A DNA stretch of 64,000 bases from the IMG/VR virus record IMGVR_UViG_3300028591_000150, positions 1 through 64,000 of that record; one strand, given 5' to 3'. Each line of letters starts with the position of its first letter. The first letter of the stretch is position 1. This DNA comes from a virus (lineage: Duplodnaviria; Caudoviricetes). The notes beneath the pieces are model-generated. The model saw nothing but the letters and a program-made list of their open reading frames with translations. It did no database searches and was not told the DNA's origin. Made by a program: the position numbers and the translations under genes. Positions 3,031 to 53,476 of the stretch are shown in pieces.

Positions 3031-3555
3031 ATGACACAGAATGAAGAATGTTTGGAATTATTGATGCAGGACGTTGTTCGCATAGACATTATGCCATACA
3101 CTGCTCTGAAAGTGAATACTCCGTTCAACGTGCAAAACATCACAGAAACAGATGTGACGATGCTTGACGGTTCGGAGATAACCGACGCCTACCTACATCT
3201 CGACTCGCTTCTCAGCCTGAACCTTAGCGGTGATGACACGGCTGATGCAGAGATGAAGGAAAGTCTTCAGCACAAGGTTGTTGAGAAAAGGGATATATCG
3301 GGAATTGTCAGAACGCATACGTTACAAATTCCGATAGAAAGTGGATTTCAAGTTGTTAGAGCAAAACAGCCATATCTAAAATATACAGATTTCCATATTG
3401 TACTAACCACTTATGATGGCAAACGATACCTGGCATACGGACTGCCAAACACCAGTCAGTTCACTATCGAGGAACAGATGGGGCAGTCTTCACAGATGAG
3501 CATTAAGGTCACTTTAATGTCAATGAGCGGCTTCATCCGCATAAGCAATATCTGA
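3031..3555 (+). CDS. Hypothetical protein, possibly a minor structural protein
   Basis: 174-aa beta-rich ORF followed by a terminator. Confidence 0.65.
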   Translation: MTQNEECLELLMQDVVRIDIMPYTALKVNTPFNVQNITETDVTMLDGSEITDAYLHLDSLLSLNLSGDDTADAEMKESLQHKVVEKRDISGIVRTHTLQIPIESGFQVVRAKQPYLKYTDFHIVLTTYDGKRYLAYGLPNTSQFTIEEQMGQSSQMSIKVTLMSMSGFIRISNI

Positions 3556-3718: not shown

Positions 3719-3753
3719 TATCCACTTCATGCCCATTCATTTGTTGAATTTTG
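3719..3753 (+). promoter_or_regulatory. Degenerate late-type promoter of the head operon (TATCCA-N21-GAATTTTG)
   Basis: Same 21-nt spacing as the TGTCCG-N21-TAnnTTTG family; 2 mismatches in the upstream box, 1 in the -7 box. Confidence 0.5.
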
Positions 3754-3781: not shown

Positions 3782-5485
3782 ATGAATGGACTTTTTGAAA
3801 TACTCAGCAACAAGGAGTGGATGATTCAGCAGAAGTTTCTGCACAGCATCCTGCCTACGCTGCAGTACAACATCACCAATCACGCCACACTCGGCATCGA
3901 GCGCGAGAAGAAGTCGCCCATGGCCATCGGTCAGAAGGGACAGGACTTCATTCGCGAGTATCAGGTGACACAGGATGGTAAGACGCACGGTCGTTATGGC
4001 TGGCGCGGCGACAGCCTGTCAGAGTTGAATGAACCTTTCGTCAATGTCATGCCTGTTGACGGACCTATTACCCGCAATGGCGGCGCCTGCAGCTACGGGT
4101 CGATGGAAATCCGCGACTGGATGATGGAGGCTGCTAACAATCCCGCTTGTCAGGGTCACGTATTGAACATCAACACCCCTGGCGGCAGTGCTTGGGCCAA
4201 GAACGACTTCCAGCAGGGCATCGACTATGCCCACGCCCGTGGCCAGCGCGTCATCGCCTTCATCGACGGCCTTTGCGCTTCGGCAGGTATGTATCTCGCT
4301 GCGCTCTGCGACGAGGTGTATGTAATGAACCCGAAAGACAAGCTGGGCTGCGTCGGCGTGATGGCTGCATTCTGCACCATGAAGAGCGGAGATAAGTTTA
4401 TGTCGGGCGAGACTTACCGCGAATACTACGCCACCAAGAGCATCAACAAGAATAAGAATATGCGCGACATCGCCGAGAACGACGATGCTAAGCTGCTTAT
4501 CGAAGAGCTCGACAAGCTGGAGGCAGAGTTCCGTGCCGACATGAAGGCCGCTTTCCCCAATGCCAAGGACGAGCATCTGGACGGCAAGGTATTCGATGCC
4601 AAGGACGTGATGGGCATCCTGTGCGACGGTCAGATGATGCTCGGTCAGGTAATCAGCCGCGTGTTCAACCTCGCCAACGGCACAGAGCAGCCCATCGAGC
4701 GCACTGCAGGCCGCAAGATGGGCGAGATGCAGAAGCCGTCTGCAAAGAAGGAACCGATGCAGCAGGCTCTCGCTGCTGGCGAGAAGACCGCTGATGAAAT
4801 TGACAACATTTTGTCTAACAAAAATACTGTAAACATGAAAGAACAATTCCCCGCAGTGTTTGCACTTCTCGAAGTAGAGGAGATGCAGGTTTCGGAGGAG
4901 GGCACATTCTTCAACAAGGACCTGCTCGCCACTCTGAACGCAAACATCGAGGCGGCACAGAAGGAATCTGCTGATGCAAAGGCATTGGTGGAGAGCCTGA
5001 CCGCCGAGAAGAACGAGTTGACCGCTAAGGTCGAGGAACTGACAGCGCAAGCTGAGACTAAGGAGGCAGAGCACGCCAAGGCCATCGAAGACCTGAACGC
5101 CGCTCACGCTACCGCTATCGAAGAGAAGGACAATGCCATCGCTGCACTGGAGCAGGAGAAGGCTGACCTGCAAGGCGAGGTCAATGCAAAGGCTGAAAAC
5201 ATCGAGGCCATGCAGACTGAGATGAACGGCACAAAGGAAAGCCTCGCGCAAGCAGAGGGCATCATCGCCGAGCGCGACCAGCAGATTGCCGACCTGAACG
5301 CACAGGTTTCCGAGTTGCAGAACACCCCAGGCGAAGGCGCTCAGGCTGGTGCTGCTCCCGCAAACAACGGAACTGGTGCAGAGGCGGCAGGCGTTGCCAT
5401 CAGCACACAATACGTCATGGACCCCAGCAAGTCCTATGAAGAGAACATGAAGGCCAAGAAGGAGTGGGAAGAAGCTCACAAGTAA
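3782..5485 (+). CDS. S49-family prohead protease fused to a coiled-coil scaffold domain
   Basis: S49/ClpP-like motifs INTPGGS, CASAGMYLA, GCVGV; acidic coiled-coil C-terminal third; immediately before capsid. Confidence 0.88.
   Translation: MNGLFEILSNKEWMIQQKFLHSILPTLQYNITNHATLGIEREKKSPMAIGQKGQDFIREYQVTQDGKTHGRYGWRGDSLSELNEPFVNVMPVDGPITRNGGACSYGSMEIRDWMMEAANNPACQGHVLNINTPGGSAWAKNDFQQGIDYAHARGQRVIAFIDGLCASAGMYLAALCDEVYVMNPKDKLGCVGVMAAFCTMKSGDKFMSGETYREYYATKSINKNKNMRDIAENDDAKLLIEELDKLEAEFRADMKAAFPNAKDEHLDGKVFDAKDVMGILCDGQMMLGQVISRVFNLANGTEQPIERTAGRKMGEMQKPSAKKEPMQQALAAGEKTADEIDNILSNKNTVNMKEQFPAVFALLEVEEMQVSEEGTFFNKDLLATLNANIEAAQKESADAKALVESLTAEKNELTAKVEELTAQAETKEAEHAKAIEDLNAAHATAIEEKDNAIAALEQEKADLQGEVNAKAENIEAMQTEMNGTKESLAQAEGIIAERDQQIADLNAQVSELQNTPGEGAQAGAAPANNGTGAEAAGVAISTQYVMDPSKSYEENMKAKKEWEEAHK
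4835..5485 (+). CDS. Putative nested in-frame scaffolding protein (internal start MKEQF)
   Basis: In-frame ATG preceded by AT-rich AACAAAAATACTGTAAAC inside an otherwise GC-rich gene; same layout as lambda C/Nu3. Confidence 0.6.
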   Translation: MKEQFPAVFALLEVEEMQVSEEGTFFNKDLLATLNANIEAAQKESADAKALVESLTAEKNELTAKVEELTAQAETKEAEHAKAIEDLNAAHATAIEEKDNAIAALEQEKADLQGEVNAKAENIEAMQTEMNGTKESLAQAEGIIAERDQQIADLNAQVSELQNTPGEGAQAGAAPANNGTGAEAAGVAISTQYVMDPSKSYEENMKAKKEWEEAHK

Positions 5486-5552
5486 GCCTTCGACGAACAC
5501 GGAAAACCTTTTTAATTAACTCAATTTATTCACCATCAATTCATTAAAAACT

Positions 5553-6842
5553 ATGGCATTTATCGGAATTGACAATTTGACCCATGTGAAGGACCGTCTT
5601 CAAACTAACATAATCATGGGTCCTGCGTATTACAGCGCAGACGAGTTGAAGCGCATGGCCATCAAGGTCATCACTGGTGTGGAGTTCAAGGACACCGCTA
5701 CCATCTTCAACCGCAAGGGTGGCACCGCTCGCCGCAAGGTGGTAGGTCAGTCACAGAACTCTGCACTTGGTTATCTGACCGAGCGCGTACTCGAAGCCCA
5801 CATTGTGTGGGATCACTACACAGCCAACGAGGACGACTTCCAAGAAAAGCCCGTGATGATTACCATCAACGGTTCTGCTCAGGCTTCCTTCCCCAAGACA
5901 GAGGATTTCGTCAACCAGATTGGCATTGCGTTCAACGACAACGTATTCCCCTGCATCTGGCATGGCGACGAGAACAGCGCAAAGGCCGAAATGGCTCTGT
6001 TCAACGGTCTGCACGCCAACCTCGACAAGGACATCGCCAATGGCGAAGTTTCCGAGGCTGCAGGCAACCTGATTCCCTGCGCAGCTCTCGATTCTCCTGC
6101 ATCAGAGGGCGACAGCTCTGCATGGGAAGAGTTCGTGAAGTGGTACAACAAGTGGCATCCTGCATTGAAGCGCCGCGAAACTGTTGTCTATATGAGCACC
6201 GCTTATGGCAACTATCTCGCAGATGCTTACGAGCAGAAGCATCGTAGCCACCTTGCCGTGAACTTCATCCCCGACGCAAACGGCAACTTCAAGGTACGCG
6301 AGTACCCGAAGATTACGTTCTGCCCCAGCGACGACTTCGGCGAAGGCACACGTATGATTGCCACCATCCCTGGCAACATGGAGTTTGGTGTAAACAACGA
6401 GGGCGATCAGTCATTCGTTAGCATCATGCACGGCGACCCCACTCCTGGCGGCGACCACAAGACCATCACGTTCCAGATTCAGGGCGTGTTCGGCACCCGC
6501 ATCCTCCGCATCAATGCTGCCTGCTTCGTTACCAACGGCGGCACCATCGAGGACAAGTATTGGTCTGGCGACTACCAGAAGGACAGCTTCACCGTTGTTG
6601 CCAACAATGCAGAATACGGTGACGTAAGCGTTTCTCCCGCTCCAGTGAACGGCGAGTATGCTAAGGGTACGACCCTGACCATTACCGCTACTCCGAAGGC
6701 TGGCTACAAGTTCGTGAAGTGGGCAGGCGCAAGCAACGCTACCACCGCTACGGCTAACGTCGTAACGAAGGGTCAGCCTGAAAGCGCAGTCGCTATCTTC
6801 GAGGCCGACGGCGGTTCCAGTGACGCCGGTTCCAGTGACTAA
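5553..6842 (+). CDS. Major capsid protein with C-terminal Ig-like (InlB B-repeat/Flg_new-like) domain and GSSDAGSSD tail
   Basis: Position after protease/scaffold, 429 aa, strong codon bias, C-terminal pattern TLTITATPKAGYKFVKW, followed by a stem-loop. Confidence 0.82.
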   Translation: MAFIGIDNLTHVKDRLQTNIIMGPAYYSADELKRMAIKVITGVEFKDTATIFNRKGGTARRKVVGQSQNSALGYLTERVLEAHIVWDHYTANEDDFQEKPVMITINGSAQASFPKTEDFVNQIGIAFNDNVFPCIWHGDENSAKAEMALFNGLHANLDKDIANGEVSEAAGNLIPCAALDSPASEGDSSAWEEFVKWYNKWHPALKRRETVVYMSTAYGNYLADAYEQKHRSHLAVNFIPDANGNFKVREYPKITFCPSDDFGEGTRMIATIPGNMEFGVNNEGDQSFVSIMHGDPTPGGDHKTITFQIQGVFGTRILRINAACFVTNGGTIEDKYWSGDYQKDSFTVVANNAEYGDVSVSPAPVNGEYAKGTTLTITATPKAGYKFVKWAGASNATTATANVVTKGQPESAVAIFEADGGSSDAGSSD

Positions 6843-6852
6843 ACTCTAGCAA

Positions 6853-6906
6853 GGGGGTAAGGGCGGCAGTGCTATATCGCCCACTGTGCCTGCCCTCCCC
6901 TTTTTC
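6853..6906 (+). terminator. Terminator or stabilising hairpin after capsid gene
   Basis: Imperfect GC-rich stem GGGG..GGGCGGCAGTG/CACTG..GCCCTCCCC with T run. Confidence 0.6.
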
Positions 6907-6942
6907 TCCTGTCAACACAAAAACTAATTTAAAAAAAAGATT

Positions 6943-7500
6943 ATGCCACAAGAAAATTGCCCAACACTGATGCACTACAGCGCAGCTGAGGAGTGCATGG
7001 AGAACCTGGCTGGTCTCGGCGAAGTGGTCTATATCGGTCTTCGAGGTGACTTGAAAACTCCAATGGCCGCCACAGACAACCTCTATGCGACCCCTTCTTT
7101 TAAGGACACCAAAGGGTTGTACAAGTTCGACCTGAAAGAGGAAGCTCAAAAGATTGCAGGCGAAAGTCAAGGAAAGCGCAAGGGCTACAACATCACAGGT
7201 ACTATGGTATTTGACGGTGTTGATGCCAAAGTCTCAAAGATTCTTCGCGCCCTGAACAACCTTGACTGGTTTGCCATCTTCCCAGACCCAACCGGCGATG
7301 CCCAAATCATTTACGACCCCAACAAAAAGGTTCGCATTGACAGCGGCGGCGCCACCACTGACACGGGTGCAGCAGCAGCTGACGATCGTATTTCGACTGT
7401 GAATTTCATTCTCGGTCCAGTGAAATACCCCAACCTTTTTGTCAGTGCTCCAGCAGACGGATGGGATTCGCTGCTTGAAGGCGTTTCTTCATCCGACTAA
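6943..7500 (+). CDS. Probable major tail tube protein
   Basis: 185 aa, beta-rich, follows capsid, own terminator; ends in GVSSSD. Confidence 0.65.
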   Translation: MPQENCPTLMHYSAAEECMENLAGLGEVVYIGLRGDLKTPMAATDNLYATPSFKDTKGLYKFDLKEEAQKIAGESQGKRKGYNITGTMVFDGVDAKVSKILRALNNLDWFAIFPDPTGDAQIIYDPNKKVRIDSGGATTDTGAAAADDRISTVNFILGPVKYPNLFVSAPADGWDSLLEGVSSSD

Positions 7501-7522
7501 AAGTCCATCTCTGTTGAAAGTC

Positions 7523-7557
7523 ACGACCCTCGTTGATAGTATCATCGGGGGTCGTTT
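7523..7557 (+). terminator. Rho-independent terminator
   Basis: ACGACCCTCG/CGGGGGTCGT stem followed by TTT. Confidence 0.65.
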
Positions 7558-7559
7558 CG

Positions 7560-7593
7560 TGTCCGCATCAATGATGAGATTTCGGTAATTTTG
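7560..7593 (+). promoter_or_regulatory. Late-type promoter of the glycosyltransferase cluster (TGTCCG-N20-TAATTTTG)
   Basis: Motif shared with six other morphogenesis promoters. Confidence 0.7.
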
Positions 7594-7613
7594 AAACAAA
7601 AAACAGTCGAAGT

Positions 7614-8519
7614 ATGACAATAGACTATGTAGTACCGATGGTTTTCCCACAAGATTTAATGTGGCGTCACGACTATTTGTCGGCGAATGGAATGTGGTGT
7701 GACGATAAAAGCACGCTCACCAACCAGCGCTACCGGACATGGGGGACAGAAGAGATACTTATACGTCTGATAAGGAAGAATTTGCCTTGGATTAGACGAA
7801 TACATATCCTTTTGGCGAGGCCGACACAGGTGCAGGATTGGATGAAGCCACTCCTTTCTGATGGCAAGCATCCTGATGTGAGAGTTGTATTTCATAAGTC
7901 CTTTATGCCTAAAGAGAAGTTGCCGACGTTTAACAGTCGCGCAATCGAGATGTATTTGCACCGCATTCCTGACCTTGCTCCGATGTTTCTTTATGGAAAC
8001 GATGACATGTTTCCACTAAGCCCAATGCCAGTGGATGATTTCTTCCGCAACGGTCTTCCCTGTTTGCATTTGAAGACGAAAGATTTCCCCTCACAACCAG
8101 GACAATATCACAAAGCTTGCCTCGGAGGTTTAAATTTCGTCGCGAGAAACTTCGGGAAGCACTATTGCACCACATGGCTTCACACAGGGCATAGCATTGC
8201 GCCGATGCTCCGTGCAACGATAGAAATGTTCTGGCAAAGATGGCCTGAAGATATGGAACGTAGTGTGACGACCTTCCGTCAGTCTTGGAATTTTAACCAG
8301 TATATCTACCTGTGGTGGCAATATCTATCAGGGCAGTACATAGATCATCACCCCGAGCGTGACTACGTGGCTACTAACCGACATTCTCCAGACGAGATTC
8401 GCAAGGCAATCGCAACAACAAATGGCATCCTCTGCATCAATGACCACGACGGTGCAGACGATTTGGAGCCATACGCACGAGTAGCAAGAGAAGGGCTGCG
8501 GTTTTGTCTCTCTAAATAA
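7614..8519 (+). CDS. Stealth-family hexose-1-phosphate transferase
   Basis: CR1-like IDYVVPMV; CR2 motifs NLPWIRRIH, PTFNSRAIE, FLYGNDDMF; CR4-like CIND. Confidence 0.88.
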   Translation: MTIDYVVPMVFPQDLMWRHDYLSANGMWCDDKSTLTNQRYRTWGTEEILIRLIRKNLPWIRRIHILLARPTQVQDWMKPLLSDGKHPDVRVVFHKSFMPKEKLPTFNSRAIEMYLHRIPDLAPMFLYGNDDMFPLSPMPVDDFFRNGLPCLHLKTKDFPSQPGQYHKACLGGLNFVARNFGKHYCTTWLHTGHSIAPMLRATIEMFWQRWPEDMERSVTTFRQSWNFNQYIYLWWQYLSGQYIDHHPERDYVATNRHSPDEIRKAIATTNGILCINDHDGADDLEPYARVAREGLRFCLSK

Positions 8520-8528
8520 GAAATCAAC

Positions 8529-9239
8529 ATGACACATATTACAGTCCTTACCGTCCACTTCAATACCCCTCGCATGATGGAGGCGTGCATCCGCTCTTTG
8601 GCCAAGCAAACGCCAGGCTGTCGTGTAGTTGTGATAGACAATAGCGACAAACAGCCTTTCAATGCTAAAAGATGTAAGGGCGTAGTCGCAAAAATTGAAG
8701 TGATAGACAATACCCGTGGTCAGCTCATCAACTTCGACCAGTGGCTACAACAATTCCCAGACCGAAAGCCAGCCAGCAGCAACTACGGCTCGCCAAAGCA
8801 TTGCAAGACCATCGACCTTTGTTTCGACATGCTGCCCGACGGCTTTATACTCATGGACTCCGACGTCCTCTTCAAGCGCGACATCACCCCGCTATGGGAC
8901 GAGACAAAGGCGTGGGTGGGCGAGCCGTTCCTCGACACGCCGAAGGGTGTTCACGTCATGCGCCTGCTGCCTTTCTTGTGCTACGTCAATGTGCCGATAT
9001 GCCGCGAGCACGGCATCCGCTATTTCAATGCCGAGTGGATGTGGCACCTCACGGCGCTCAGCCCGCAGAAATGGCACGACACAGGCGCATGGTTCTACAA
9101 GGACTGCATGGCCAAGCAGATGCCATACACAGCTGTCAAGACCGCCGACTACATAGAACATTATTTTCACGGCAGTCACGCCAACCTGAACGGCGGCATG
9201 TCGGAGTGGCTGCGCAAGTATAGACATCTTTGGATATGA
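8529..9239 (+). CDS. GT2-like (GT-A fold) glycosyltransferase
   Basis: VLTVHFNT...VVVIDNS N-terminus; DxD motif MDSDV. Confidence 0.8.
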   Translation: MTHITVLTVHFNTPRMMEACIRSLAKQTPGCRVVVIDNSDKQPFNAKRCKGVVAKIEVIDNTRGQLINFDQWLQQFPDRKPASSNYGSPKHCKTIDLCFDMLPDGFILMDSDVLFKRDITPLWDETKAWVGEPFLDTPKGVHVMRLLPFLCYVNVPICREHGIRYFNAEWMWHLTALSPQKWHDTGAWFYKDCMAKQMPYTAVKTADYIEHYFHGSHANLNGGMSEWLRKYRHLWI

Positions 9240-9991
9240 AAGTAGAAGTTTTCACCCTTTGTTGGAATGAGATTGACGTGCTGCCGTGGGTCGTTGACTA
9301 CTGGCAGAAGTATGCAACCCACGTGACGGTGTTCGACAACGGCTCGACCGACGGCAGCACGTGGTATCTTAGCAAGTTCGACTGGATAACGGTCAAGGAG
9401 TTTCTTACCGAGGGCATGAACGATGCTGTGCAGGCCGACATCAAGAACAAGTGCTGGAAAGGCTCTGATGCCGACTTCGTGGTGGTGTGCGACATGGACG
9501 AGATGCTCCTTGCGCCCGACATTCTGAAATCGCTGGAGAACATGAAGGCCAGCGGAGCCACCATCTGCAAGCCTGTGTGGTACGAGCTACAGGCTGAGGA
9601 GCGACCGAAATACGAAACTGGAAAGATGCTCCACGAGACGTCGCCGATGGCACGCCCGTTCCAGGACTTCTCGAAAGCCATCATCTTCGACCCCAAGGCC
9701 ATCACTAATATCGGCTACTCCGTCGGTGCCCATAAGTGCGACCCGCAAGGCAACGTGAAGTGGTACGAGGGGCAGGATATCTATGCCCTGCACATCAACC
9801 ACAACCTTTCCTTTGACTACAAGATTCAGCGTTACCGCTCGATGAACGCCAACCTCAGTCAGAAGAACAAGAACCAGCGATGGGGCATACACTACGGCTT
9901 CGACGAAGGGCTGCTGCGCCGAGCATGGGAAGAGGATGCCAAAAAACTTGTGGACTTCTGCCAGATAATGAAAGGATGCGGCAATGGGTAG
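9230..9991 (+). CDS. GT2-like glycosyltransferase
   Basis: FDNGSTDGS; DFVVVCDMDE DxD motif; overlaps upstream stop. Confidence 0.85.
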   Translation: MDMKVEVFTLCWNEIDVLPWVVDYWQKYATHVTVFDNGSTDGSTWYLSKFDWITVKEFLTEGMNDAVQADIKNKCWKGSDADFVVVCDMDEMLLAPDILKSLENMKASGATICKPVWYELQAEERPKYETGKMLHETSPMARPFQDFSKAIIFDPKAITNIGYSVGAHKCDPQGNVKWYEGQDIYALHINHNLSFDYKIQRYRSMNANLSQKNKNQRWGIHYGFDEGLLRRAWEEDAKKLVDFCQIMKGCGNG

Positions 9992-10775
9992 AGTGGCGGC
10001 AATGGCCCTGTGTCGGCTGGGCAATCAGATGTTCATAGCGGCGGCAGCACGTACCTTCGCCAGTCGCACAGGACGTGAGTTCTACGGCTTGGTATATACC
10101 GATGTAGCGAGCGACTTCCCCCGTGAGCAGCAGGAGCGCATCATGCGGAACATCCGCTACATGCGCCCCGAAGAGGTGCGCGGGTATTACCACGTGCCGC
10201 ACGGCAAATATCTCTGCAACGGCTTCCCTGAGACCGACGCCGCCGACGTGCTGTTGGCCGACTTCTTCCAGGATGCCACCTGCATTGACCGCGACATTGC
10301 CTACGACCTCTTTGCACCATACGACAGCATCCTCACGGAGATTCGCAGTCTCTATGGCGATGTAAGCGACCGCGTGTGCATCAACGTGCGGCGCGGCGAC
10401 TACCTCTTGCGCGGCAACCCCGAACTGGGATTCCGCACGCTGTCGCAGGAAGACATCTGCGCCATCCTCGACGAGCACTTCCCGCACGACAAGGTGCTGT
10501 TTGTCTCTGATGATATAGAATGGTGTAAGGCGCATTTCACCGGTCCGCGCTTCGCCTTTGCCGACAAGCCCTGCCAGTACAAACCTGAGATGGACCTCTA
10601 CCTGCAGACCCAATGTAAGGCCAACGTCATCAGCAACTCCACCTTCTCGTGGTGGGGTGCCTACCTGAATGCCCGTTCCGAAAAGGTGGTCTGCCCCTGG
10701 CCGTGGTTCAACGGTGACAAAATCAGCCCAATGACCAACATCCTCCCGCCGTCATGGATAAAATGGAAAAAATAA
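9984..10775 (+). CDS. GT11 alpha-1,2-fucosyltransferase
   Basis: RLGNQMF, NVRRGDY, FVSDD and ISNSTFSWWGAYL motifs. Confidence 0.9.
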   Translation: MGRVAAMALCRLGNQMFIAAAARTFASRTGREFYGLVYTDVASDFPREQQERIMRNIRYMRPEEVRGYYHVPHGKYLCNGFPETDAADVLLADFFQDATCIDRDIAYDLFAPYDSILTEIRSLYGDVSDRVCINVRRGDYLLRGNPELGFRTLSQEDICAILDEHFPHDKVLFVSDDIEWCKAHFTGPRFAFADKPCQYKPEMDLYLQTQCKANVISNSTFSWWGAYLNARSEKVVCPWPWFNGDKISPMTNILPPSWIKWKK

Positions 10776-11476
10776 CCGTCTGCATCGTCAACTACAACAC
10801 GCCCGAGCTGACTGCCGCAGCCGTCCGCTCGCTGTGGAAGCATCACCCAAACTGTCGCATTGTCGTCTTCGATAATAGCGACAGACTTCCTTCCGGTGGG
10901 CTTAATAGGTTTAATAGGCAGATTGAAATTGTTGACAACACCAAAGGGCAAATTATTGACTTCGATAGTTACCTTCAGCAGTTTCCTAATAAAGAGACAG
11001 GTTCTGTCAACAAGAGCAACTATGGTTCCACCAAACACGCACTAAGCGTGCAGTGGATGATAGACAATACTGATGAGCCGTTTGTTCTGATGGACAGTGA
11101 TGTGCTCGTTTTTCAGTCAATCAACTGCTTTTGCAATCCTCGTTACGCATTCGTTGCGCATATCGGATGTAATACATATAGACGGTTTGGTCTTGAAATC
11201 TACCGCGCAGAGCCATTGCTTTGCTATATCAATGCCCCAATGCTCCGTAAGTACGGCATCCGCTACTTCAATCCCGATTATATGTGGGCGCTCAGTAATG
11301 TCAGTCCAAACAATAGATACGACACTGGCGCATGGCTCCTGAAGGACGTGCAGGAACATAATTTGCCATATCTCGACGTAGATACCAGTCATTATATCCT
11401 GCACTTTGGTCATGGTTCATGGAAGGAGAAGGACTATCGCCAATGGCTTGAATGGTATCGTGATTTATGGCAATAA
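10754..11476 (+). CDS. GT2-like glycosyltransferase, paralog of 8529..9239
   Basis: IVNYNT...VFDNS, MDSDV; shares NYGS, GIRYFN and DTGAW with 8529..9239. Confidence 0.8.
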   Translation: MDKMEKITVCIVNYNTPELTAAAVRSLWKHHPNCRIVVFDNSDRLPSGGLNRFNRQIEIVDNTKGQIIDFDSYLQQFPNKETGSVNKSNYGSTKHALSVQWMIDNTDEPFVLMDSDVLVFQSINCFCNPRYAFVAHIGCNTYRRFGLEIYRAEPLLCYINAPMLRKYGIRYFNPDYMWALSNVSPNNRYDTGAWLLKDVQEHNLPYLDVDTSHYILHFGHGSWKEKDYRQWLEWYRDLWQ

Positions 11477-11477
11477 G

Positions 11478-11512
11478 TGTCCGTTGTATTATTTTTCGAT
11501 GCGCTATCTTTG
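11478..11512 (+). promoter_or_regulatory. Late-type promoter (TGTCCG-N21-TATCTTTG)
   Basis: Exact motif and spacing. Confidence 0.75.
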
Positions 11513-11543: not shown

Positions 11544-12215
11544 ATGTATATCGAACCCTGTTGTGCCGAAAGACAACTCGGCCATCTTTTTAGAGAAGAG
11601 CGTGGTCATGTCATAGCATTTCAGACGAGCGGCGATGTGACTTTTGAACATTGGATGAAAGCCGTTATGCTCATGTCTGGCGACCGCCCGAGAACACTCG
11701 CCCTTGCCGTACCTATCTTAACAGGCGCAATGATGCGACCACTGGCAAGGTATATGCGATTGGAGTGGATAGCAAAGTTAAGGCTAATGACCACCGACCC
11801 GATAGCGTATAATGTCATTTCGGATTTTGCAGGCATGGTCGGATGTGATGTCAATGTACTATTGGAGCGCATTGAACTTGCCTCAGACTCCAGCATTCCA
11901 GACGGGATGATAGCTTTCAGCGGACCCGATGGCACGGTGGCCATTCAGGGTCGGATCTATGATGAAGTAACGCCAGGGCTGTCTCTCTATGCCGGTGTGT
12001 TTGGCAGAACCGACAGCTCAGGTGTCCGTACTATAATGGATGCCTGGAACGCCAATTTCAAGGCACGGCGGTATGAAGTAGCATTACTTTCGCAACAAAC
12101 AGAACAGCCAAAGAAGAAAAAGACAACCCGTAAAAAGAACAAGAACAATGAAACTAAACCTATGGAAACGATGGCAGGAACATCGCAAAAAAAAGAAACA
12201 AGAGAAGCAAAATAG
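11544..12215 (+). CDS. Hypothetical protein with basic C-terminal tail
   Basis: 223-aa ORF downstream of late-type promoter. Confidence 0.75.
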   Translation: MYIEPCCAERQLGHLFREERGHVIAFQTSGDVTFEHWMKAVMLMSGDRPRTLALAVPILTGAMMRPLARYMRLEWIAKLRLMTTDPIAYNVISDFAGMVGCDVNVLLERIELASDSSIPDGMIAFSGPDGTVAIQGRIYDEVTPGLSLYAGVFGRTDSSGVRTIMDAWNANFKARRYEVALLSQQTEQPKKKKTTRKKNKNNETKPMETMAGTSQKKETREAK

Positions 12216-12702
12216 AAGTTTGATGCGGACTTGGATCTGGTTGGAAAAGATTTTCGAGAGCGGAATGCTATCGTTCGACCATAAATCCCACAGACTCTTC
12301 ATCTCCCAACCAGTTGCAGTGCTTCTGATGGCAAATGGTGCAGATGGCTGGACTAAAAGCATTCATGCCATCTATCAATACACCTACTTTCGTCTGTTGC
12401 AGCAGGCATGGGAGGACTTCATGCAAAAAGAAGAACTTGCTGCAGTTCGTAATGCCATGAGCAGTCCAGCAGGTGACAAGATAACTAGGGATGACATCGA
12501 GCGCATCAAGCGTTCACGCCGTTCTGAAATTGCCGTCGGTGACATGGAGCCTCCAAAGATTGAGCCATTTGAATTTTTCATTTTGCCTGACAGTACGGAG
12601 GCAAAAGTGGAACCTTTAGGCATCGGATATTACGACCCTAACAAAAGAGAGATGGAAGTGGCCACCTGGGAAGACGTGAAAAGTCTTATTAAAACGCAAT
12701 AA
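12148..12702 (+). CDS. Hypothetical protein
   Basis: 184-aa ORF overlapping the previous gene end. Confidence 0.7.
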   Translation: MKLNLWKRWQEHRKKKKQEKQNRSLMRTWIWLEKIFESGMLSFDHKSHRLFISQPVAVLLMANGADGWTKSIHAIYQYTYFRLLQQAWEDFMQKEELAAVRNAMSSPAGDKITRDDIERIKRSRRSEIAVGDMEPPKIEPFEFFILPDSTEAKVEPLGIGYYDPNKREMEVATWEDVKSLIKTQ

Positions 12703-13583: not shown

Positions 13584-13919
13584 TTATTTCGAACGATTAA
13601 CGCTGTCTGTAATAGCGAGAAGGTTGTTCAGGTTCTTGACATCCGATGCCAGCGAACCGATGCTGGCACCCATCTGTCCCATTTGTTTGACAAGATCGAC
13701 CTTCATGTCGTTTAGCGTGTCAAAAATTTCATCCTGCTTCTTTGAATGAGCATCAAGGCGTTTAGTCATGTTGTCTATGATTTTTTGTTGGTTCTCGACG
13801 GTTTTATGCAGGACGGCGACATCAACGATGAGTTTTCTGATGTACCCTGCATACAGTCCTATTGCCGTGATAAATGCCCCTAAAATGGACTGCCAGATGT
13901 CTGTTACTATTGTTTCCAT
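13584..13919 (-). CDS. Membrane protein with TM plus coiled coil (holin/antiholin-like)
   Basis: N-terminal TM then heptad repeats; start METIV at 13919. Confidence 0.55.
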   Translation of the reverse strand: METIVTDIWQSILGAFITAIGLYAGYIRKLIVDVAVLHKTVENQQKIIDNMTKRLDAHSKKQDEIFDTLNDMKVDLVKQMGQMGASIGSLASDVKNLNNLLAITDSVNRSK

Positions 13920-13944
13920 TTTTTTATTTTTATTTTTCTTGATA

Positions 13945-13979
13945 CAAAGGTACAACCGAAATGAATTGGAACACGGACA
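13945..13979 (-). promoter_or_regulatory. Late-type promoter of holin genes (TGTCCG-N21-TACCTTTG)
   Basis: Exact motif and spacing on minus strand. Confidence 0.75.
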
Positions 13980-17783: not shown

Positions 17784-20700
17784 TTATCCGCCGTAGCGAG
17801 ACATGAACTTCATGCCAGATTTGACCTCTTCTATGAGACCGCCCGTGCCATATTTTTTAATGTGTGCAGGTATTCCGTTCTGCTGAAGTTTCGTGACGGT
17901 CTGTGTGAAAACGCTGATGGCTGATGTAAGAGCACGTGCATCCTCACTGCTCAGGCCTAAGTTAGAGCCGTCAGGCATAGTGGCTGCAACCTGCTCTACG
18001 TTTCCGCTATCAAATGGACTATAGCCCTTTCCGCCATACTTTTCGTAGTTTGCAAGATATTTGATAAGTTCAGGTTCATTCATCATAATGGCCTGTGTTG
18101 TCTTTCGACCTACCACTATTTCAGGTCCGTTTTCAGCTACAAGTGCAGGTTGTCCTTGCACAGTGGTGGCAATGGGATGCGTTACGAGTCCGTCCTTGGG
18201 TTGTGCCTCCTCAGTAGCGGTATATACTTTACCGTCCTGGCCGATGAAGCGCTTTACGTTACCCTCGTCATAGGTAAGCATCCCAGATGCAAGTTTAACC
18301 TTCGGTGTGTTAGTGGCCTTTGACGATTCCGTACCTGCAGTGCTTTTTGCACTACTGAGCAATCCCATTAGCAATGCTGTGATTACGCCGATAAGAGGAA
18401 TACCCCACCAACCAAGTGTTCCAATAATCTTAGACGCTCCCTCGCTGATGCCGAACATGGTCATAATCGTCGCCTTACCACCTTCCTGCGTCACCTCGGC
18501 TGCATCCTGTGCGGATTTTACGCCAAGGGCAGTTGCGCCGATTCCTGTTTGGGCAGAAATCCGACCCATTTCTCCTGATATTTGGATATTGGTCATCTCG
18601 ACCTGATGCTTCATTTCTTCCATCTCCATCTGCTTGTAGAAAAGATTCTGTTGGAGTTTCTTCATCAGGTTCTCGCTGGCCATCTTCAACGTCAGCTTGG
18701 CGTACTCGATGCCCATATTCTTCGCCATCTGCCCGAATGTGAGCTTCCCTTCCCTGCTGATACCCTGCCACATCTCGCCAAGCATTGTTCCGACTTCCTC
18801 TCCCCATTCATTGAGCGGTTCGCTCAGGGTCTGTATTTTTTCCATGCGCTCTGCGACTTCTGCGCTCACTTTCTCGGCCAATGCAGCGGCCTCTTTCAGC
18901 ATCTCGTTCTGCTTCTCCATTATGAGTTCCTCGCTGGCATTACGTGCCTGCAAGTCTTCCAATTCGCGAGCTCGCCACTCCATTCGGTTTTTGATTCTGG
19001 CAATTTCAGGGTCATCGGCTATTTCATCTATAAAGCCATACGTCTGTCCAAACGTTTCGCCCTGTCCGCTGATTTTACGCAGACTGTCTTGCGTCTCGAA
19101 GGCTGTGTTATCTTGTTTCTCCTGGGCCTCCCACCCCATCGCCTGCCATCGTTCGCCGAACTCGCGCTTCTCCTGCTCATAGTTGCGTTTCAGAGCTGCG
19201 TAGTAGTCCGAGTCCATATCAATCATCGTCTTGTAGAATGCCTGCATCTGCTCCTTATACTGCTCTGGCTTCTCCATCCACTCATCCAGTCTTGGGAACA
19301 TGGAAGCAAATGACTCGCGGATTTTGTTGCCATCTGCATCAACTGTGTTCATCAGGGCATCAATCATGTTACGGAGTTCCAGTACATCGTCTTCATCTAC
19401 GCCATAGAACTTCTTTGTGTCCATCTTCACTACCTTGCTGGCAAGAGCCTGCACGTCCTTCGTATTGGCTACTATCTCGGTACCGTCTGCCAACTGTTTA
19501 ACCACCTTGTCGTAGCCGTCCGTAATGAGTCCCAACTTCACAAGTTTGTCACCGAACGTGCGCTGTGCCTGCTCCACATACTCATACTGCATCAGTATCT
19601 TGTCAACCTCCTGTTGAATGGCAGCCTGACGTCGTTGGATGTTCAGTTCATTCTGGGCAGCGTTCTTTCGGACATCGTTCAACCAGGCATTGCTGTCAAG
19701 TCCGAAGACTGAATCCGAGCCGTCATACTTGCGCAGTACGGCTCCCTTCTTTGCGGGGTCTGCCTGTTGTATGCGACCAATAGCGGCACGACTGACTGCA
19801 TCGTCACGCTTTACGAGGTCCTGCTCGAGTTTTTTGCGTTCGTTCTCAAACTCATTCGGATCTCCGGCAATAGCGCGACGTGCTTCGAGAAGCATCTTGT
19901 CCTTGCGGTCCTGAATGTGCTTAACCAGCATTTCAAAATCACTACCCTTCAACTGTCCGTTTGCGGCCAGTTCGTTGGCAGCAGCCTCCTGTAAGCGGTA
20001 AAACTCCTCAATGGAACCGATGATCGCTTTGGTGGACTTTTCTGCCTCCTTCTTTTCTTCAACCATCCACTCTGGGGCTTTGGCCTTATTATCAGTCTTG
20101 TTGGTGTCAGAAACATTGCCACCGCCTCCACCTCCGTCATCGCTCTCAGGTTCTGGTTTTATGCTGAGACTATCAATCCTATCCTTCAGCTTGTCCATAT
20201 CCTTATCAATATCGGAAATGGTTTTATCAATGTTTGTGATAGAACGCTCTGTACCCTCATACTCGTCAATAATACCCGGCTTCATAGCGGCAGCTCCGCG
20301 TTGCGCTATACCCGCCTCTTGGAATCCACCAGCACTTCTTGTCGCCTCGCTGACAAAATCTTTCTGCTCCTGATATGCCTTTTTGTTCTTCTCATATTTG
20401 TCTTTATTTTCTTTTTTCCATTGTTCCTTTTCCTCCTTTTCGTCCTCCAAAGCCATACGCTTATTCTCCAACTCGGTAATCTTGTTGGCATAAGCACGTG
20501 CACGGGCTGATTTGATTATTTCGTCGGTCAAGTCTCTGTAAGCATTGGCGGCAAGATTGGCAATGGTTTTCTCATTGGCCAACTTCTCGTAATATTCCTT
20601 ATATCTTGCATCGCCAACCATGTCGCGCAAGGCCTTTTTACGTTCTTCGATACTCTTTGTCTGATCTTGTGTGGCATCGTAAAGTTTCTTCAACTCTACA

Positions 20701-22550
20701 CGCTGGCGGATGCTTTCCTCCTTTGCCTCCTTTTCTGCCTCTTCCAATATGTCAAGACTGTTGGCGGCGTCTTTTGATGCTTTTGCCATGTCACAGATAT
20801 ATGATACAGCAAAAGCAATGGCAGTTGCACCAAGTACCCACACATTAGATTTCATGAAAGCTGAGAGTCGAGCCATACCGGTACTTGCGGTTGTGATTGC
20901 AGCATTCAGTGCTGTGAACTCAACCCATAGTTTCCTGATAGCCTGTGCAGCGCCATAGAACATGAATGCTCTTATGAGTGTGGGCAGTAATTTCATCAAA
21001 ATGCCGATGACCGAAGCGATAGAATAAAGCGAATTTTTGACGCTTGTCATCCATGTATCACTCTCGGTCAATTCCTTTGACAAATCATACCACTCTTCTG
21101 CCAATTTCTTGACCGTATCAACGCCTTCAGGATTGACGAATGCTTTCTCCCAGATATTGTTAGCCCTTTCGAGAACAGCGGCAGCGCTGGCATTTTGCAA
21201 TTCATATTCGTTGATGACAGCCGTGCCTTCAATGAAAGCATCGGTAGATGTCTTCAAGTGTGTGCGAAGCATATCCACGTTATTGGCCATAGCGGTCATT
21301 ACCGTTGTCATACGGGCGCCCTCAGAACCAAGTAACTTGAATATTTCCGGATATTTGTTCAAGTTGCCCAAACCCTGCATCTTGTCAAAGACCATTACCA
21401 TAGCCTGCATAGCCTGATTTTGGTCGTACATGGAACGGATGGTGCCCTGATCAATATTGAGGAACTTTTCTATCGCATCCGCGTTCTTATATATAGCAGG
21501 GAACATCTTTGCAAATGCCGTAGAAGCCTTTTCTGCTTCCAAGCCACTTGACTCTGTAGCAGAAGCGAGGCCTAACAACTCGTCAGTTGTCACATTAGCG
21601 GACTTTGCAACAGGCATAAGACGTTTCGCGAAGTCAACAATACCAGTACCTGTAGAAACGCTGGATGTATAAAGTTGGAAGATGGCGCTGGCTGTCTTCT
21701 GCATAGCCTCTTCTACGCCATACTTGCGTATTAGGTCCATATTCTCCGTCAACTTTGCCATTGCGGGAAGTGCCTCTTCGCCCATTTCTTCGCCAAGTGC
21801 CATCTGGACTTGCTCTGCAGCCTTCACAAACCCAGTCAGGCCCTCCACACCATAGTTGCCGATACCAAGTTTACCGCCTTGGTACGCCAAATCCATCAGT
21901 GTGTTGACAGTGTTGCGGGTATCTATCTTAGTCAGATTCTGATATAACTGATTGACGTCTTCAACGGCTAATCCGCTCACCTTACGCACGTTCATAATGG
22001 CATCGGAAAGCTCGTAGTTCTTCCTAACCATCTCCGTCATCTTATTCCTGACGAAGTTGAAAGCGGCAAACACGCCCATGTAAGCGGTGATATTACGAAC
22101 GGCAGTTTGCCATACGGTATTATGCGTAGCCCCGAACTTGTTTGTTTCGCCGGTAAGCCTTGCCATTTGGTTTTGGATTTTTCTCAAATCATCAACCAGC
22201 TGCTTGCGCTTGGGGTCACGCTCTGACATATTGTTGAGTGCCGCCTTACCCTCCTGAAGGGCTTTCTTCAAGTCCTTCAGTTTGGCACCTGCAAGGTCTT
22301 TCATCACTTCGCCAAGCTTCTTCTGTTCGTCGCGGTTCTTCTGAATGTTGGTGCGCATAGCGTCCATCGCCCTTTCCAAGTCTTTCAGACGCTTTTTCTC
22401 ATCGTTTTCTGCATAGCCGCGCTGCTTGATAACGTTCAGCAGATTCTCCTCTTCTCTTGCAAGAGCGGCCATACCACGTTCTAAGCCCTCAATGACAGCC
22501 TTGACGTTTGTGGCGTTACAAGTGATGATGACTTCTTTCTTCTTAGCCAT
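17784..22550 (-). CDS. Tail tape measure protein
   Basis: 1588 aa, helical, TP901-type region (VRKVSGL...LAYQGGKLG), hydrophobic segments, C-terminal LVAENGPEIV. Confidence 0.9.
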   Translation of the reverse strand: MAKKKEVIITCNATNVKAVIEGLERGMAALAREEENLLNVIKQRGYAENDEKKRLKDLERAMDAMRTNIQKNRDEQKKLGEVMKDLAGAKLKDLKKALQEGKAALNNMSERDPKRKQLVDDLRKIQNQMARLTGETNKFGATHNTVWQTAVRNITAYMGVFAAFNFVRNKMTEMVRKNYELSDAIMNVRKVSGLAVEDVNQLYQNLTKIDTRNTVNTLMDLAYQGGKLGIGNYGVEGLTGFVKAAEQVQMALGEEMGEEALPAMAKLTENMDLIRKYGVEEAMQKTASAIFQLYTSSVSTGTGIVDFAKRLMPVAKSANVTTDELLGLASATESSGLEAEKASTAFAKMFPAIYKNADAIEKFLNIDQGTIRSMYDQNQAMQAMVMVFDKMQGLGNLNKYPEIFKLLGSEGARMTTVMTAMANNVDMLRTHLKTSTDAFIEGTAVINEYELQNASAAAVLERANNIWEKAFVNPEGVDTVKKLAEEWYDLSKELTESDTWMTSVKNSLYSIASVIGILMKLLPTLIRAFMFYGAAQAIRKLWVEFTALNAAITTASTGMARLSAFMKSNVWVLGATAIAFAVSYICDMAKASKDAANSLDILEEAEKEAKEESIRQRVELKKLYDATQDQTKSIEERKKALRDMVGDARYKEYYEKLANEKTIANLAANAYRDLTDEIIKSARARAYANKITELENKRMALEDEKEEKEQWKKENKDKYEKNKKAYQEQKDFVSEATRSAGGFQEAGIAQRGAAAMKPGIIDEYEGTERSITNIDKTISDIDKDMDKLKDRIDSLSIKPEPESDDGGGGGGNVSDTNKTDNKAKAPEWMVEEKKEAEKSTKAIIGSIEEFYRLQEAAANELAANGQLKGSDFEMLVKHIQDRKDKMLLEARRAIAGDPNEFENERKKLEQDLVKRDDAVSRAAIGRIQQADPAKKGAVLRKYDGSDSVFGLDSNAWLNDVRKNAAQNELNIQRRQAAIQQEVDKILMQYEYVEQAQRTFGDKLVKLGLITDGYDKVVKQLADGTEIVANTKDVQALASKVVKMDTKKFYGVDEDDVLELRNMIDALMNTVDADGNKIRESFASMFPRLDEWMEKPEQYKEQMQAFYKTMIDMDSDYYAALKRNYEQEKREFGERWQAMGWEAQEKQDNTAFETQDSLRKISGQGETFGQTYGFIDEIADDPEIARIKNRMEWRARELEDLQARNASEELIMEKQNEMLKEAAALAEKVSAEVAERMEKIQTLSEPLNEWGEEVGTMLGEMWQGISREGKLTFGQMAKNMGIEYAKLTLKMASENLMKKLQQNLFYKQMEMEEMKHQVEMTNIQISGEMGRISAQTGIGATALGVKSAQDAAEVTQEGGKATIMTMFGISEGASKIIGTLGWWGIPLIGVITALLMGLLSSAKSTAGTESSKATNTPKVKLASGMLTYDEGNVKRFIGQDGKVYTATEEAQPKDGLVTHPIATTVQGQPALVAENGPEIVVGRKTTQAIMMNEPELIKYLANYEKYGGKGYSPFDSGNVEQVAATMPDGSNLGLSSEDARALTSAISVFTQTVTKLQQNGIPAHIKKYGTGGLIEEVKSGMKFMSRYGG

Positions 22551-27310: not shown

Positions 27311-27345
27311 CAAAGGTAGCGCACATCTTTTTATATATACGGACA
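27311..27345 (-). promoter_or_regulatory. Late-type promoter of portal operon (TGTCCG-N21-TACCTTTG)
   Basis: Exact motif and spacing. Confidence 0.75.
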
Positions 27346-27384: not shown

Positions 27385-27419
27385 TGTCCGTATGCTTTTG
27401 CTTCAATGCGCTAACTTTG
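27385..27419 (+). promoter_or_regulatory. Late-type promoter of packaging operon (TGTCCG-N21-TAACTTTG)
   Basis: Exact motif and spacing; divergent from 27311..27345. Confidence 0.75.
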
Positions 27420-48548: not shown

Positions 48549-48583
48549 CAAAGGTACGGCAAAGTGAAAATAACAGACGGACA
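48549..48583 (-). promoter_or_regulatory. Late-type promoter of tail-tip operon (TGTCCG-N21-TACCTTTG)
   Basis: Exact motif and spacing. Confidence 0.75.
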
Positions 48584-53441: not shown

Positions 53442-53476
53442 CAAAGTTAAAAAAAGCCCGCCCAAGTGGACGGACA
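53442..53476 (-). promoter_or_regulatory. Late-type promoter (TGTCCG-N21-TAACTTTG), overlapping a likely terminator of the replication operon
   Basis: Exact motif and spacing; GTCCGTCC/GGGCGGGC hairpin plus T run overlaps it. Confidence 0.7.

Follow-up and report, generated by a model that had tools for sequence, protein, structure and literature searches.

The first 64 kb (64,000 nucleotides, hereafter the window) of the 92,307-bp virus record IMGVR_UViG_3300028591_000150 from IMG/VR, for which CheckV gives a completeness of 94%, carry genes for the head and the tail tube of a phage and, directly behind them, a cassette of five genes for transferases. The proteins predicted to form the capsid and the tail tube both end in a short run of serines closed by an aspartate, which we call the serine tag, and the cassette specifies a Stealth-family protein, two paralogous GT-A-like enzymes, a GT2_4 glycosyltransferase and a member of the GT11 family. 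Among the relatives of this phage, the presence of the tags invariably goes with that of the enzymes and their absence with the absence of the enzymes, and hence it is most likely that the phage puts a sugar coat on its particle itself. Unless stated otherwise, all features described below lie on the plus strand.

The head module is marked by a gene coding for a head maturation protease fused to a scaffold (3782..5485; phrog_53, E 1.8e-27; weak Peptidase_S49 match). Directly 3' of it lies an open reading frame (ORF) of 429 aa (5553..6842), for which we built an AlphaFold model on 54 relatives (predicted local distance difference test score, pLDDT, 81). Foldseek recovers 319 matches to this model at E <= 0.001; at the top among the matches listed are phage capsids and encapsulins, with the capsids of T5/DT57C (1.6e-9), the gene transfer agent (GTA), HK97 and phi29 at E values from 1.6e-9 to 9e-8 and a probability of 1.0, and the alignment to phi29 gp8 spans approximately 440 columns. 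Residues 347-419 match the Ig-like Flg_new_2 domain (Pfam, E 2.4e-11). Judging from the modeled fold and its position after the protease/scaffold gene, this ORF is the HK97-fold major capsid protein, extended at the C-terminus by an outward Ig-like domain. The chain ends in DGGSSDAGSSD (6807..6839), where two 15-nt units in tandem (6810-6824 and 6825-6839), agreeing at 14 of 15 positions, give rise to two copies of SSD. Since the pLDDT of residues 421-429 is below 50, these last nine residues are predicted to be disordered. The copy number of the SSD unit appears to be polymorphic, because a contig from a metatranscriptome library of a different study is missing exactly 15 nt at 6812 within the tag; among the database relatives, one of 424 aa, identical at 100% of the aligned part, has a single terminal SSD. 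A further capsid relative (P0152, 459 aa) bears tandem NAGGE repeats at its C-terminus in place of the serine tag, an extension of a different kind. The capsid gene is followed by a weak, terminator-like hairpin and U run (6851..6903; -25.4 kcal/mol, z only -1.5).

The next gene (6943..7500) codes for a protein of 185 aa ending in EGVSSSD. By Foldseek alone its structure model (pLDDT 83) finds only weak matches (E 4e-3). In the VIA comparison, it is related to the tube proteins of 80alpha (Z 8.6; root-mean-square deviation 3.5, 126 aligned residues), SPP1 (gp17.1, Z 8.6) and lambda (gpV, Z 8.4); tube proteins account for all 12 of the matches at Z >= 8 (Z 8.6 to 8.0, 124-130 residues aligned), and the top rows are either tube proteins or Hcp. 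On this modeled fold, it is a siphophage-type tail tube protein (major tail protein) with an Hcp/gpV-like fold. The tag itself, GVSSSD (7480..7497), uses three different serine codons (TCT TCA TCC). The initial annotation, made from the nucleotide sequence without database searches, had named these two proteins as the capsid and the putative tail tube and had reported their SSD-type ends together with the 15-bp duplication, all of which is borne out by the structural and sequence comparisons.

The body of the tube protein closes with a conserved WDSLL in its relatives, and the serine tag is present or absent beyond this point. In lambda gpV, the chain runs on from the corresponding point into an external Ig-like domain. 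Likewise, some of the tube relatives (P0060 and P0062, 268 aa) have a C-terminal Flg_new_2 Ig-like domain where the short tag would be, which argues that the C-terminus of the tube protein is an outward-facing site for add-ons. As the capsid tag also follows an Ig-like domain, we infer from the comparison of folds that both tags are displayed on the exterior of the particle.

The first gene of the cassette (7614..8519) specifies a compact protein of 301 aa that scores 90.7 bits with Stealth_CR2 (PF11380; cut-off 39.4 bits, E 8.5e-26). It aligns with CpsY of M. tuberculosis (8j2n; E 9.1e-16, residues 47-271) and with the catalytic domain of the human GlcNAc-1-phosphotransferase GNPTAB (7s6n; E 8.2e-13), such that its YGNDDMF segment with the NDD motif falls on YSNDDMF and YLNDDVM, respectively. 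The Pfam models for the Stealth regions CR1, CR3 and CR4 give no match up to E 10, and the alignment with CpsY passes through the region of the His-x-x-Pro segment. This protein is a member of the Stealth family and is predicted from its sequence to be a hexose-1-phosphate transferase. Stealth enzymes transfer hexose-1-phosphate onto a hydroxyl group and thereby form a phosphodiester (PMC7729866). In the shared CR2 region and the aligned NDD motif, it resembles the other members of the family, such as CpsY, GNPTAB and the meningococcal capsule polymerases, but differs from them in its compactness, in being encoded by a phage, in its pairing or fusion with a virus-only GT-A-like enzyme and in its proposed acceptor, which would be a protein tag or the first sugar on that tag rather than a polysaccharide or an N-glycan.

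Of the remaining four products, the one encoded at 9230..9991 is a GT2_4 glycosyltransferase (Glyco_tranf_2_4, PF13704; 41 bits against a cut-off of 27.5, E 2.7e-10; phrog_13126, E 3.5e-8) and is the sole GT2-type ORF to pass Pfam. The products of the second gene (8529..9239, copy A) and the last gene (10754..11476, copy B) are paralogs with 43% identity, whose matches to the GT2 model PF00535 cover only the N-terminal 38 residues and stay below the cut-off of 23.3 bits (15.9 bits, E 0.013, for copy A; 12.8 bits, E 0.11, for copy B). The DNSD and MDSD motifs of their family, which are invariant across ten members, are typical of GT-A enzymes; a profile of the family has no meaningful match among solved structures, and the nearest Atlas clusters are 100% viral. 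Given the sub-threshold Pfam matches and the lack of a solved counterpart, with agreement in the motifs only, we class the two paralogs as a GT-A-like, virus-only family and not as GT2 enzymes. This family is present in 23 of the loci that we fetched and is frequently fused to the Stealth domain. The ORF at 9984..10775 belongs to GT11 (Glyco_transf_11, PF01531; 66.7 bits against a cut-off of 23.9, E 2.6e-18; phrog_2644, E 1.3e-30) and is probably of the alpha-1,2-fucosyltransferase type. It shares with the bacterial alpha-1,2-fucosyltransferases, in addition to the Pfam match, the RRGDY and FSWW motifs (here VRRGDY and FSWWGAYL), but its match is confined to the C-terminal half of the model (positions 153-295 of 298), and it has an asparagine for the histidine of the first motif. 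Thus, of the assignments in the initial annotation, those of Stealth and GT11 are upheld by Pfam, while its three GT2-like enzymes are reduced to one, the two paralogs falling outside that family.

The junctions between the five enzyme ORFs measure +9, -10, -8 and -22 nt, and their arrangement as a translationally coupled operon is well supported. None of the five enzymes has a membrane segment, the highest hydropathy over any 19-residue stretch being 1.38, under the level of membrane helices. Between the tube and the Stealth genes stand a hairpin directly after the tube gene (7523..7555; -21 kcal/mol, z -3.26, equaled by 0 of 200 shuffles) and a phage-specific promoter of the form TGTCCG-N20-TAATTTTG (7560..7593). 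The hairpins after the capsid and the tube genes are both missed by a simple terminator scan, and by folding that of the tube gene alone is significant. A promoter of the same class closes the cassette ahead of the next unit (11478..11512). The second half of the composite motif TGTCCG-N20/21-TAnnTTTG is the Bacteroidota -7 box, and the composite is found seven times in the window against 0.07 expected (7560-7593, 11478-11512, 27385-27419 and, on the minus strand, 13945-13979, 27311-27345, 48549-48583 and 53442-53476); one of these copies precedes a holin-like gene on the minus strand (13584-13955, phrog_1296). The hexamer TGTCCG by itself is not enriched (35 occurrences against 28 expected), and on this ground we dropped it as a promoter box in favor of the composite that includes the -7 box. 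Ahead of the protease gene, near 3719, the head operon carries no more than a degenerate version, TATCCA-N21-GAATTTTG. The initial claim of a TGTCCG box shared with the morphogenesis operons hence survives as a composite promoter before the Stealth gene, the next unit and the holin-like gene, but not for the bare hexamer or, beyond a degenerate copy, for the head operon. As the hairpin and the promoter separate the tube gene from the Stealth gene, and a further copy serves the holin-like gene, the cassette is predicted to be a transcription unit of its own under a phage-specific promoter class that would drive at least one late gene too. In RNA libraries, one contig of 2140 nt identical to the window (5147-7286) extends over the protease, capsid and tube genes, and small pieces cover the Stealth gene and copy A; we do not count these as expression, because DNA may occur in such libraries and contigs cannot rank genes, and we read nothing into the stretches that no contig reaches.

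To follow the tags and the enzymes across related phages, capsid relatives were gathered from viral contigs, assemblies, genomes and metagenomes, 30 of which had enough DNA. Tags and transferases were scored with profiles made from the genes of the window, and the capsid tree was built after removal of the tags. Both the capsid and the tube are tagged in 11 of the 30 relatives, and in the DNA seen transferases are present in exactly those 11. The initial annotation had proposed asking whether relatives without the glycosyltransferase cluster also lack the SSD tails, and this is the case throughout (30/30 concordant). The trait has changed at least 8 times on the capsid tree, and all seven independent pairs on well-supported branches are concordant (sign test p 0.0156). 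One relative with a capsid about 91% identical to that of the window (L004) has neither the tag nor the enzymes. In the tag-less relative L005, the tube gene is followed directly, with no transferases between, by homologs of the two overlapping ORFs that lie behind the cassette in the window (11544-12215 and 12148-12702), and hence this pair (11544..12702; 223 and 184 aa) marks the site at which the cassette is inserted. The members of the pair lie in different frames with an overlap of 68 nt, a layout like that of a tail-chaperone frameshift pair; neither has a family match, and the tape measure gene (17784-22550, product of 1588 aa) is distant and on the opposite strand.

Most of these loci reach only about 10 kb on either side of the capsid gene, and we hence searched whole records too. 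Neither Stealth nor a GT-A-like gene occurs anywhere in two tag-less phages, one of 111.7 kb (100% complete) and the other of 93 kb (95% complete). In a tagged phage of 104 kb, the Stealth gene stands beside the tube gene and the GT-A-like gene lies 65 kb off, suggesting that the two travel together even when unlinked. Three tagged contigs with no transferase in the 6-10 kb downstream (P0210, P0196 and P0197) were considered as counter-examples and set aside as incompletely covered, because transferases do occur upstream in L063, a longer contig from that clade: a GT-A-like gene and an 847-aa GT11 fusion 4-6 kb ahead of the capsid gene.

The association extends beyond the capsid relatives. A search with the Stealth protein recovered 27 viral loci, the phages concerned ranging from 36 to 195 kb; in most of these loci the Stealth and GT-A-like genes sit between a gene in the tube position and genes in the positions of the tail chaperone and the tape measure; in diverse loci the two are often a single fused protein of 737-746 aa. 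The tube-position protein in these loci (about 190 aa) ends in sequences such as GSSSSE and the capsid-position protein (about 400 aa) in repeats such as SSSSEASSSSE, and a third tagged family of about 176 aa, found in Stealth-bearing phages, ends in a serine run of the form ITLSxSSSSS. Over all loci, at least one tagged ORF is found in 25 of 27 transferase-bearing loci of diverse phages (47/564 ORFs), the tags sitting on the proteins in capsid and tube positions, versus none of the 19 transferase-free related loci (0/371 ORFs), a difference that argues against the serine tags being a product of chance. Among database relatives, the grammar of the tag, two to six serines followed by E, D or N, is kept by every tagged tube protein (58/58) and every tagged capsid protein (39/39), and the tag is added onto an otherwise conserved C-terminus. 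An unrelated 52-kb phage (L022:7782-10861) has its own version of the GT-A-like, GT2_4 and GT11 block (61%, 63% and 79% identity, respectively), with the Stealth gene placed after and not before it and a tube-position protein ending in DNDSSE; this recurrence makes the block look like a mobile module for the extension of the glycan. Some relatives also code for a third tagged protein upstream of the protease gene, of 183 aa with a run of eight serines and then D at its end in one (L063:6351-6902) and of 200 aa ending in SSSSTSSD in the other (L052:7384-7986). In the window, an untagged ORF (3031-3555) is at that position.

On the strength of these comparisons, we think it probable that the phage modifies its own virion, with the enzymes of the cassette acting on the serine tags of the capsid and the tube. 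In the mechanism that we propose, the five soluble enzymes would act on the tags in the cytoplasm late in infection. The conserved core would be the virus-only GT-A-like enzyme and the Stealth hexose-1-phosphate transferase: one of the core enzymes would start an O-linked sugar on a serine, and Stealth would then add a sugar-1-phosphate via a phosphodiester bond, or else act directly on the serine. The former order is the more economical, since the known acceptors of Stealth enzymes are sugars. In the phage of the window, the second GT-A-like copy, GT2_4 and the fucosyltransferase-type GT11 enzyme would extend the glycan, and the expected outcome is a head and tail covered with an anionic, possibly fucosylated glycan. 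The phosphodiester and the fucose of this putative product are read from the family membership of the enzymes only. Candidate roles for such a coat may include shielding, stability, reduced sticking and host recognition. Retention in mucus, as suggested in the initial annotation, fits poorly with the origin of the phage and its relatives in ruminant gut samples and Prevotellaceae bins.

Several observations weigh against this proposal. The family motif of GT11 is HxRRxD, and the ORF of the window reads NVRRGDY, with an asparagine at the position of the histidine. The GT-A fold of the virus-only family is based on motifs and sub-threshold matches alone. One Stealth-bearing phage (L026) has an untagged tube-position protein and no GT-A-like gene, while another (L029) has serine-rich ends that fall outside the strict tag pattern. 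The tagged clade of L063 has no Stealth gene in the 20 kb covered, and for most relatives the verdict covers no more than some 10 kb around the capsid gene. Transcription is not proved by the contigs from RNA libraries, and the probable modification of the virion is itself deduced from genes and their comparison. Finally, the acceptors known for Stealth enzymes are sugars (PMC7729866), and a direct attack on serine would be new.

A broader version of the same idea, which we put forward tentatively, is that the C-terminal S(2-6)[E/D/N]-COOH motif serves as a portable address, such that the Stealth and GT-A-like pair builds a phosphodiester-linked glycan on any protein that bears it. The phages of the rumen and gut with this equipment might then form a guild with an anionic coat. 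The glycan would in this case be a sugar-1-phosphate set directly on the serine or a chain of poly(sugar-phosphate) resembling a teichoic acid.

Two other explanations deserve consideration, both of which we regard as unlikely. In one, the cassette remodels a surface glycan of the host, such as the capsule, lipopolysaccharide (LPS) or exopolysaccharide, during infection or carriage, thereby blocking superinfection or masking receptors, and the tags are unrelated. Stealth enzymes are indeed best known from the synthesis of capsules and from other sugar acceptors (PMC7729866), phage glycosyltransferases that change the serotype of the host are well known (PMC12619734), and one of the tagged relatives is classed as a provirus in IMG/VR. 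However, all five enzymes are soluble, and the genome has neither an initiating lipid-carrier transferase (no Bac_transf protein is encoded) nor a tyrosine integrase. Moreover, the cassette lies within the block of structural genes and shares its promoter class with a holin-like gene, and its perfect co-variation with tags on two or three structural proteins would be left unexplained.

In the other, the tags and the enzymes are both adaptations to a shared host or niche with no enzyme-substrate relation between them, the tags being phosphorylated, modified by the host or simply acidic flexible spacers. Co-variation is not a mechanism, the number of independent pairs is modest (n=7), and the relatives all come from one habitat and one host family. 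Nevertheless, within that same habitat phages with and without tags alternate among one another at a capsid identity of about 91%, the same tag grammar occurs on the non-homologous capsid and tube families wherever Stealth is found, and the enzymes have been inserted repeatedly straight after the gene of the tagged tube. We know of no part played by the Stealth and GT11 families in DNA modification, which counts against a third alternative. It is very improbable that the transferases glycosylate the DNA of the phage (hypermodified bases) to evade restriction, as the genome has no gene of the thymidylate-synthase or deoxynucleoside monophosphate (dNMP) hydroxymethylase families and the serine tags would be unexplained, even though phage glycosyltransferases often act on DNA (PMC12619734; bioRxiv 10.1101/2023.12.21.572611).

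The self-glycosylation of the virion proposed here invites comparison with known systems. To our knowledge, phages that glycosylate their own particles have to date been demonstrated only among a few mycobacteriophages. In these, glycans are attached to the C-termini of the capsid and tail-tube subunits (Freeman et al. 2023, Cell Host Microbe 31:1216, as described in PMC12619734 and PMC12582341). In mycobacteriophage Che8, the capsid protein ends in KTGS and the tube protein in SDGS, and the three transferases comprise a fusion of GT2 with a methyltransferase, a GT2-like protein and a GT25 enzyme (Pfam). Thus, both phages code for soluble glycosyltransferases and both have capsid and tube proteins with serine in their end region, the glycan being shown in the mycobacteriophages only. 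There are differences: Che8 has no Stealth enzyme and its enzyme families are other than those of the window; its enzyme genes occupy the right arm at a great distance from the structural genes, whereas those of the window are directly behind them; and the tag of the window is of the kind in which several serines precede a final E, D or N, in phages of rumen Prevotellaceae and not of Actinobacteria. The Che8 enzymes show no similarity to those of the window by BLASTP or profiles (all E > 0.6). Given this and the distance of the Che8 enzyme genes from the structural genes, the system of the window appears to work like that of the mycobacteriophages without belonging to it by descent. Our literature search found no paper on Stealth enzymes in the modification of phage virions, which does not show that none exists; most likely, a virion chemistry of this type has not yet been described for phages.

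These comparisons suggest that a much larger group of phages of Bacteroidota in the ruminant gut may do likewise by means of a simple, recognizable C-terminal tag and of enzymes that are not homologous to the mycobacteriophage ones, a sugar-phosphate transferase among them. If true, the surfaces of phages in gut ecosystems would be seen anew with respect to their charge, how readily they stick, their resistance to proteases and how bacteria or animals recognize them, and the tag would supply a sequence rule by which modified virions could be predicted from metagenomes. The acceptor range of Stealth enzymes would become directly testable, and a compact pair of enzyme and tag would be at hand for attaching glycans to proteins inside bacteria. 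Should the tag further prove to be a portable address, it would constitute, together with two enzymes, a minimal and transplantable system for protein phosphoglycosylation in the bacterial cytoplasm.

DNA near-identical to that of the window is present in gut metagenomes of sheep and cattle from more than 10 studies. Contigs that carry relatives of the capsid gene have been binned as rumen Prevotella or Prevotellaceae, and one is from Prevotella sp. MGM1; accordingly, the initial assignment of the phage to Bacteroidales hosts is reasonable, with the ruminant gut as its habitat. No annotated relative was recovered, a nucleotide search of the phage collection being empty and a protein search returning one distant match. 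The contig from the cultured isolate (L058, Prevotella sp. MGM1 Contig204, 90,283 bp) carries a distant, tag-less relative of the head module of the window and could possibly serve as a laboratory handle on this group of phages. In another tag-less relative (L042:2165-4453), the precomputed Pfam matches indicate a DNA methylase gene split by an intein with a LAGLIDADG domain.

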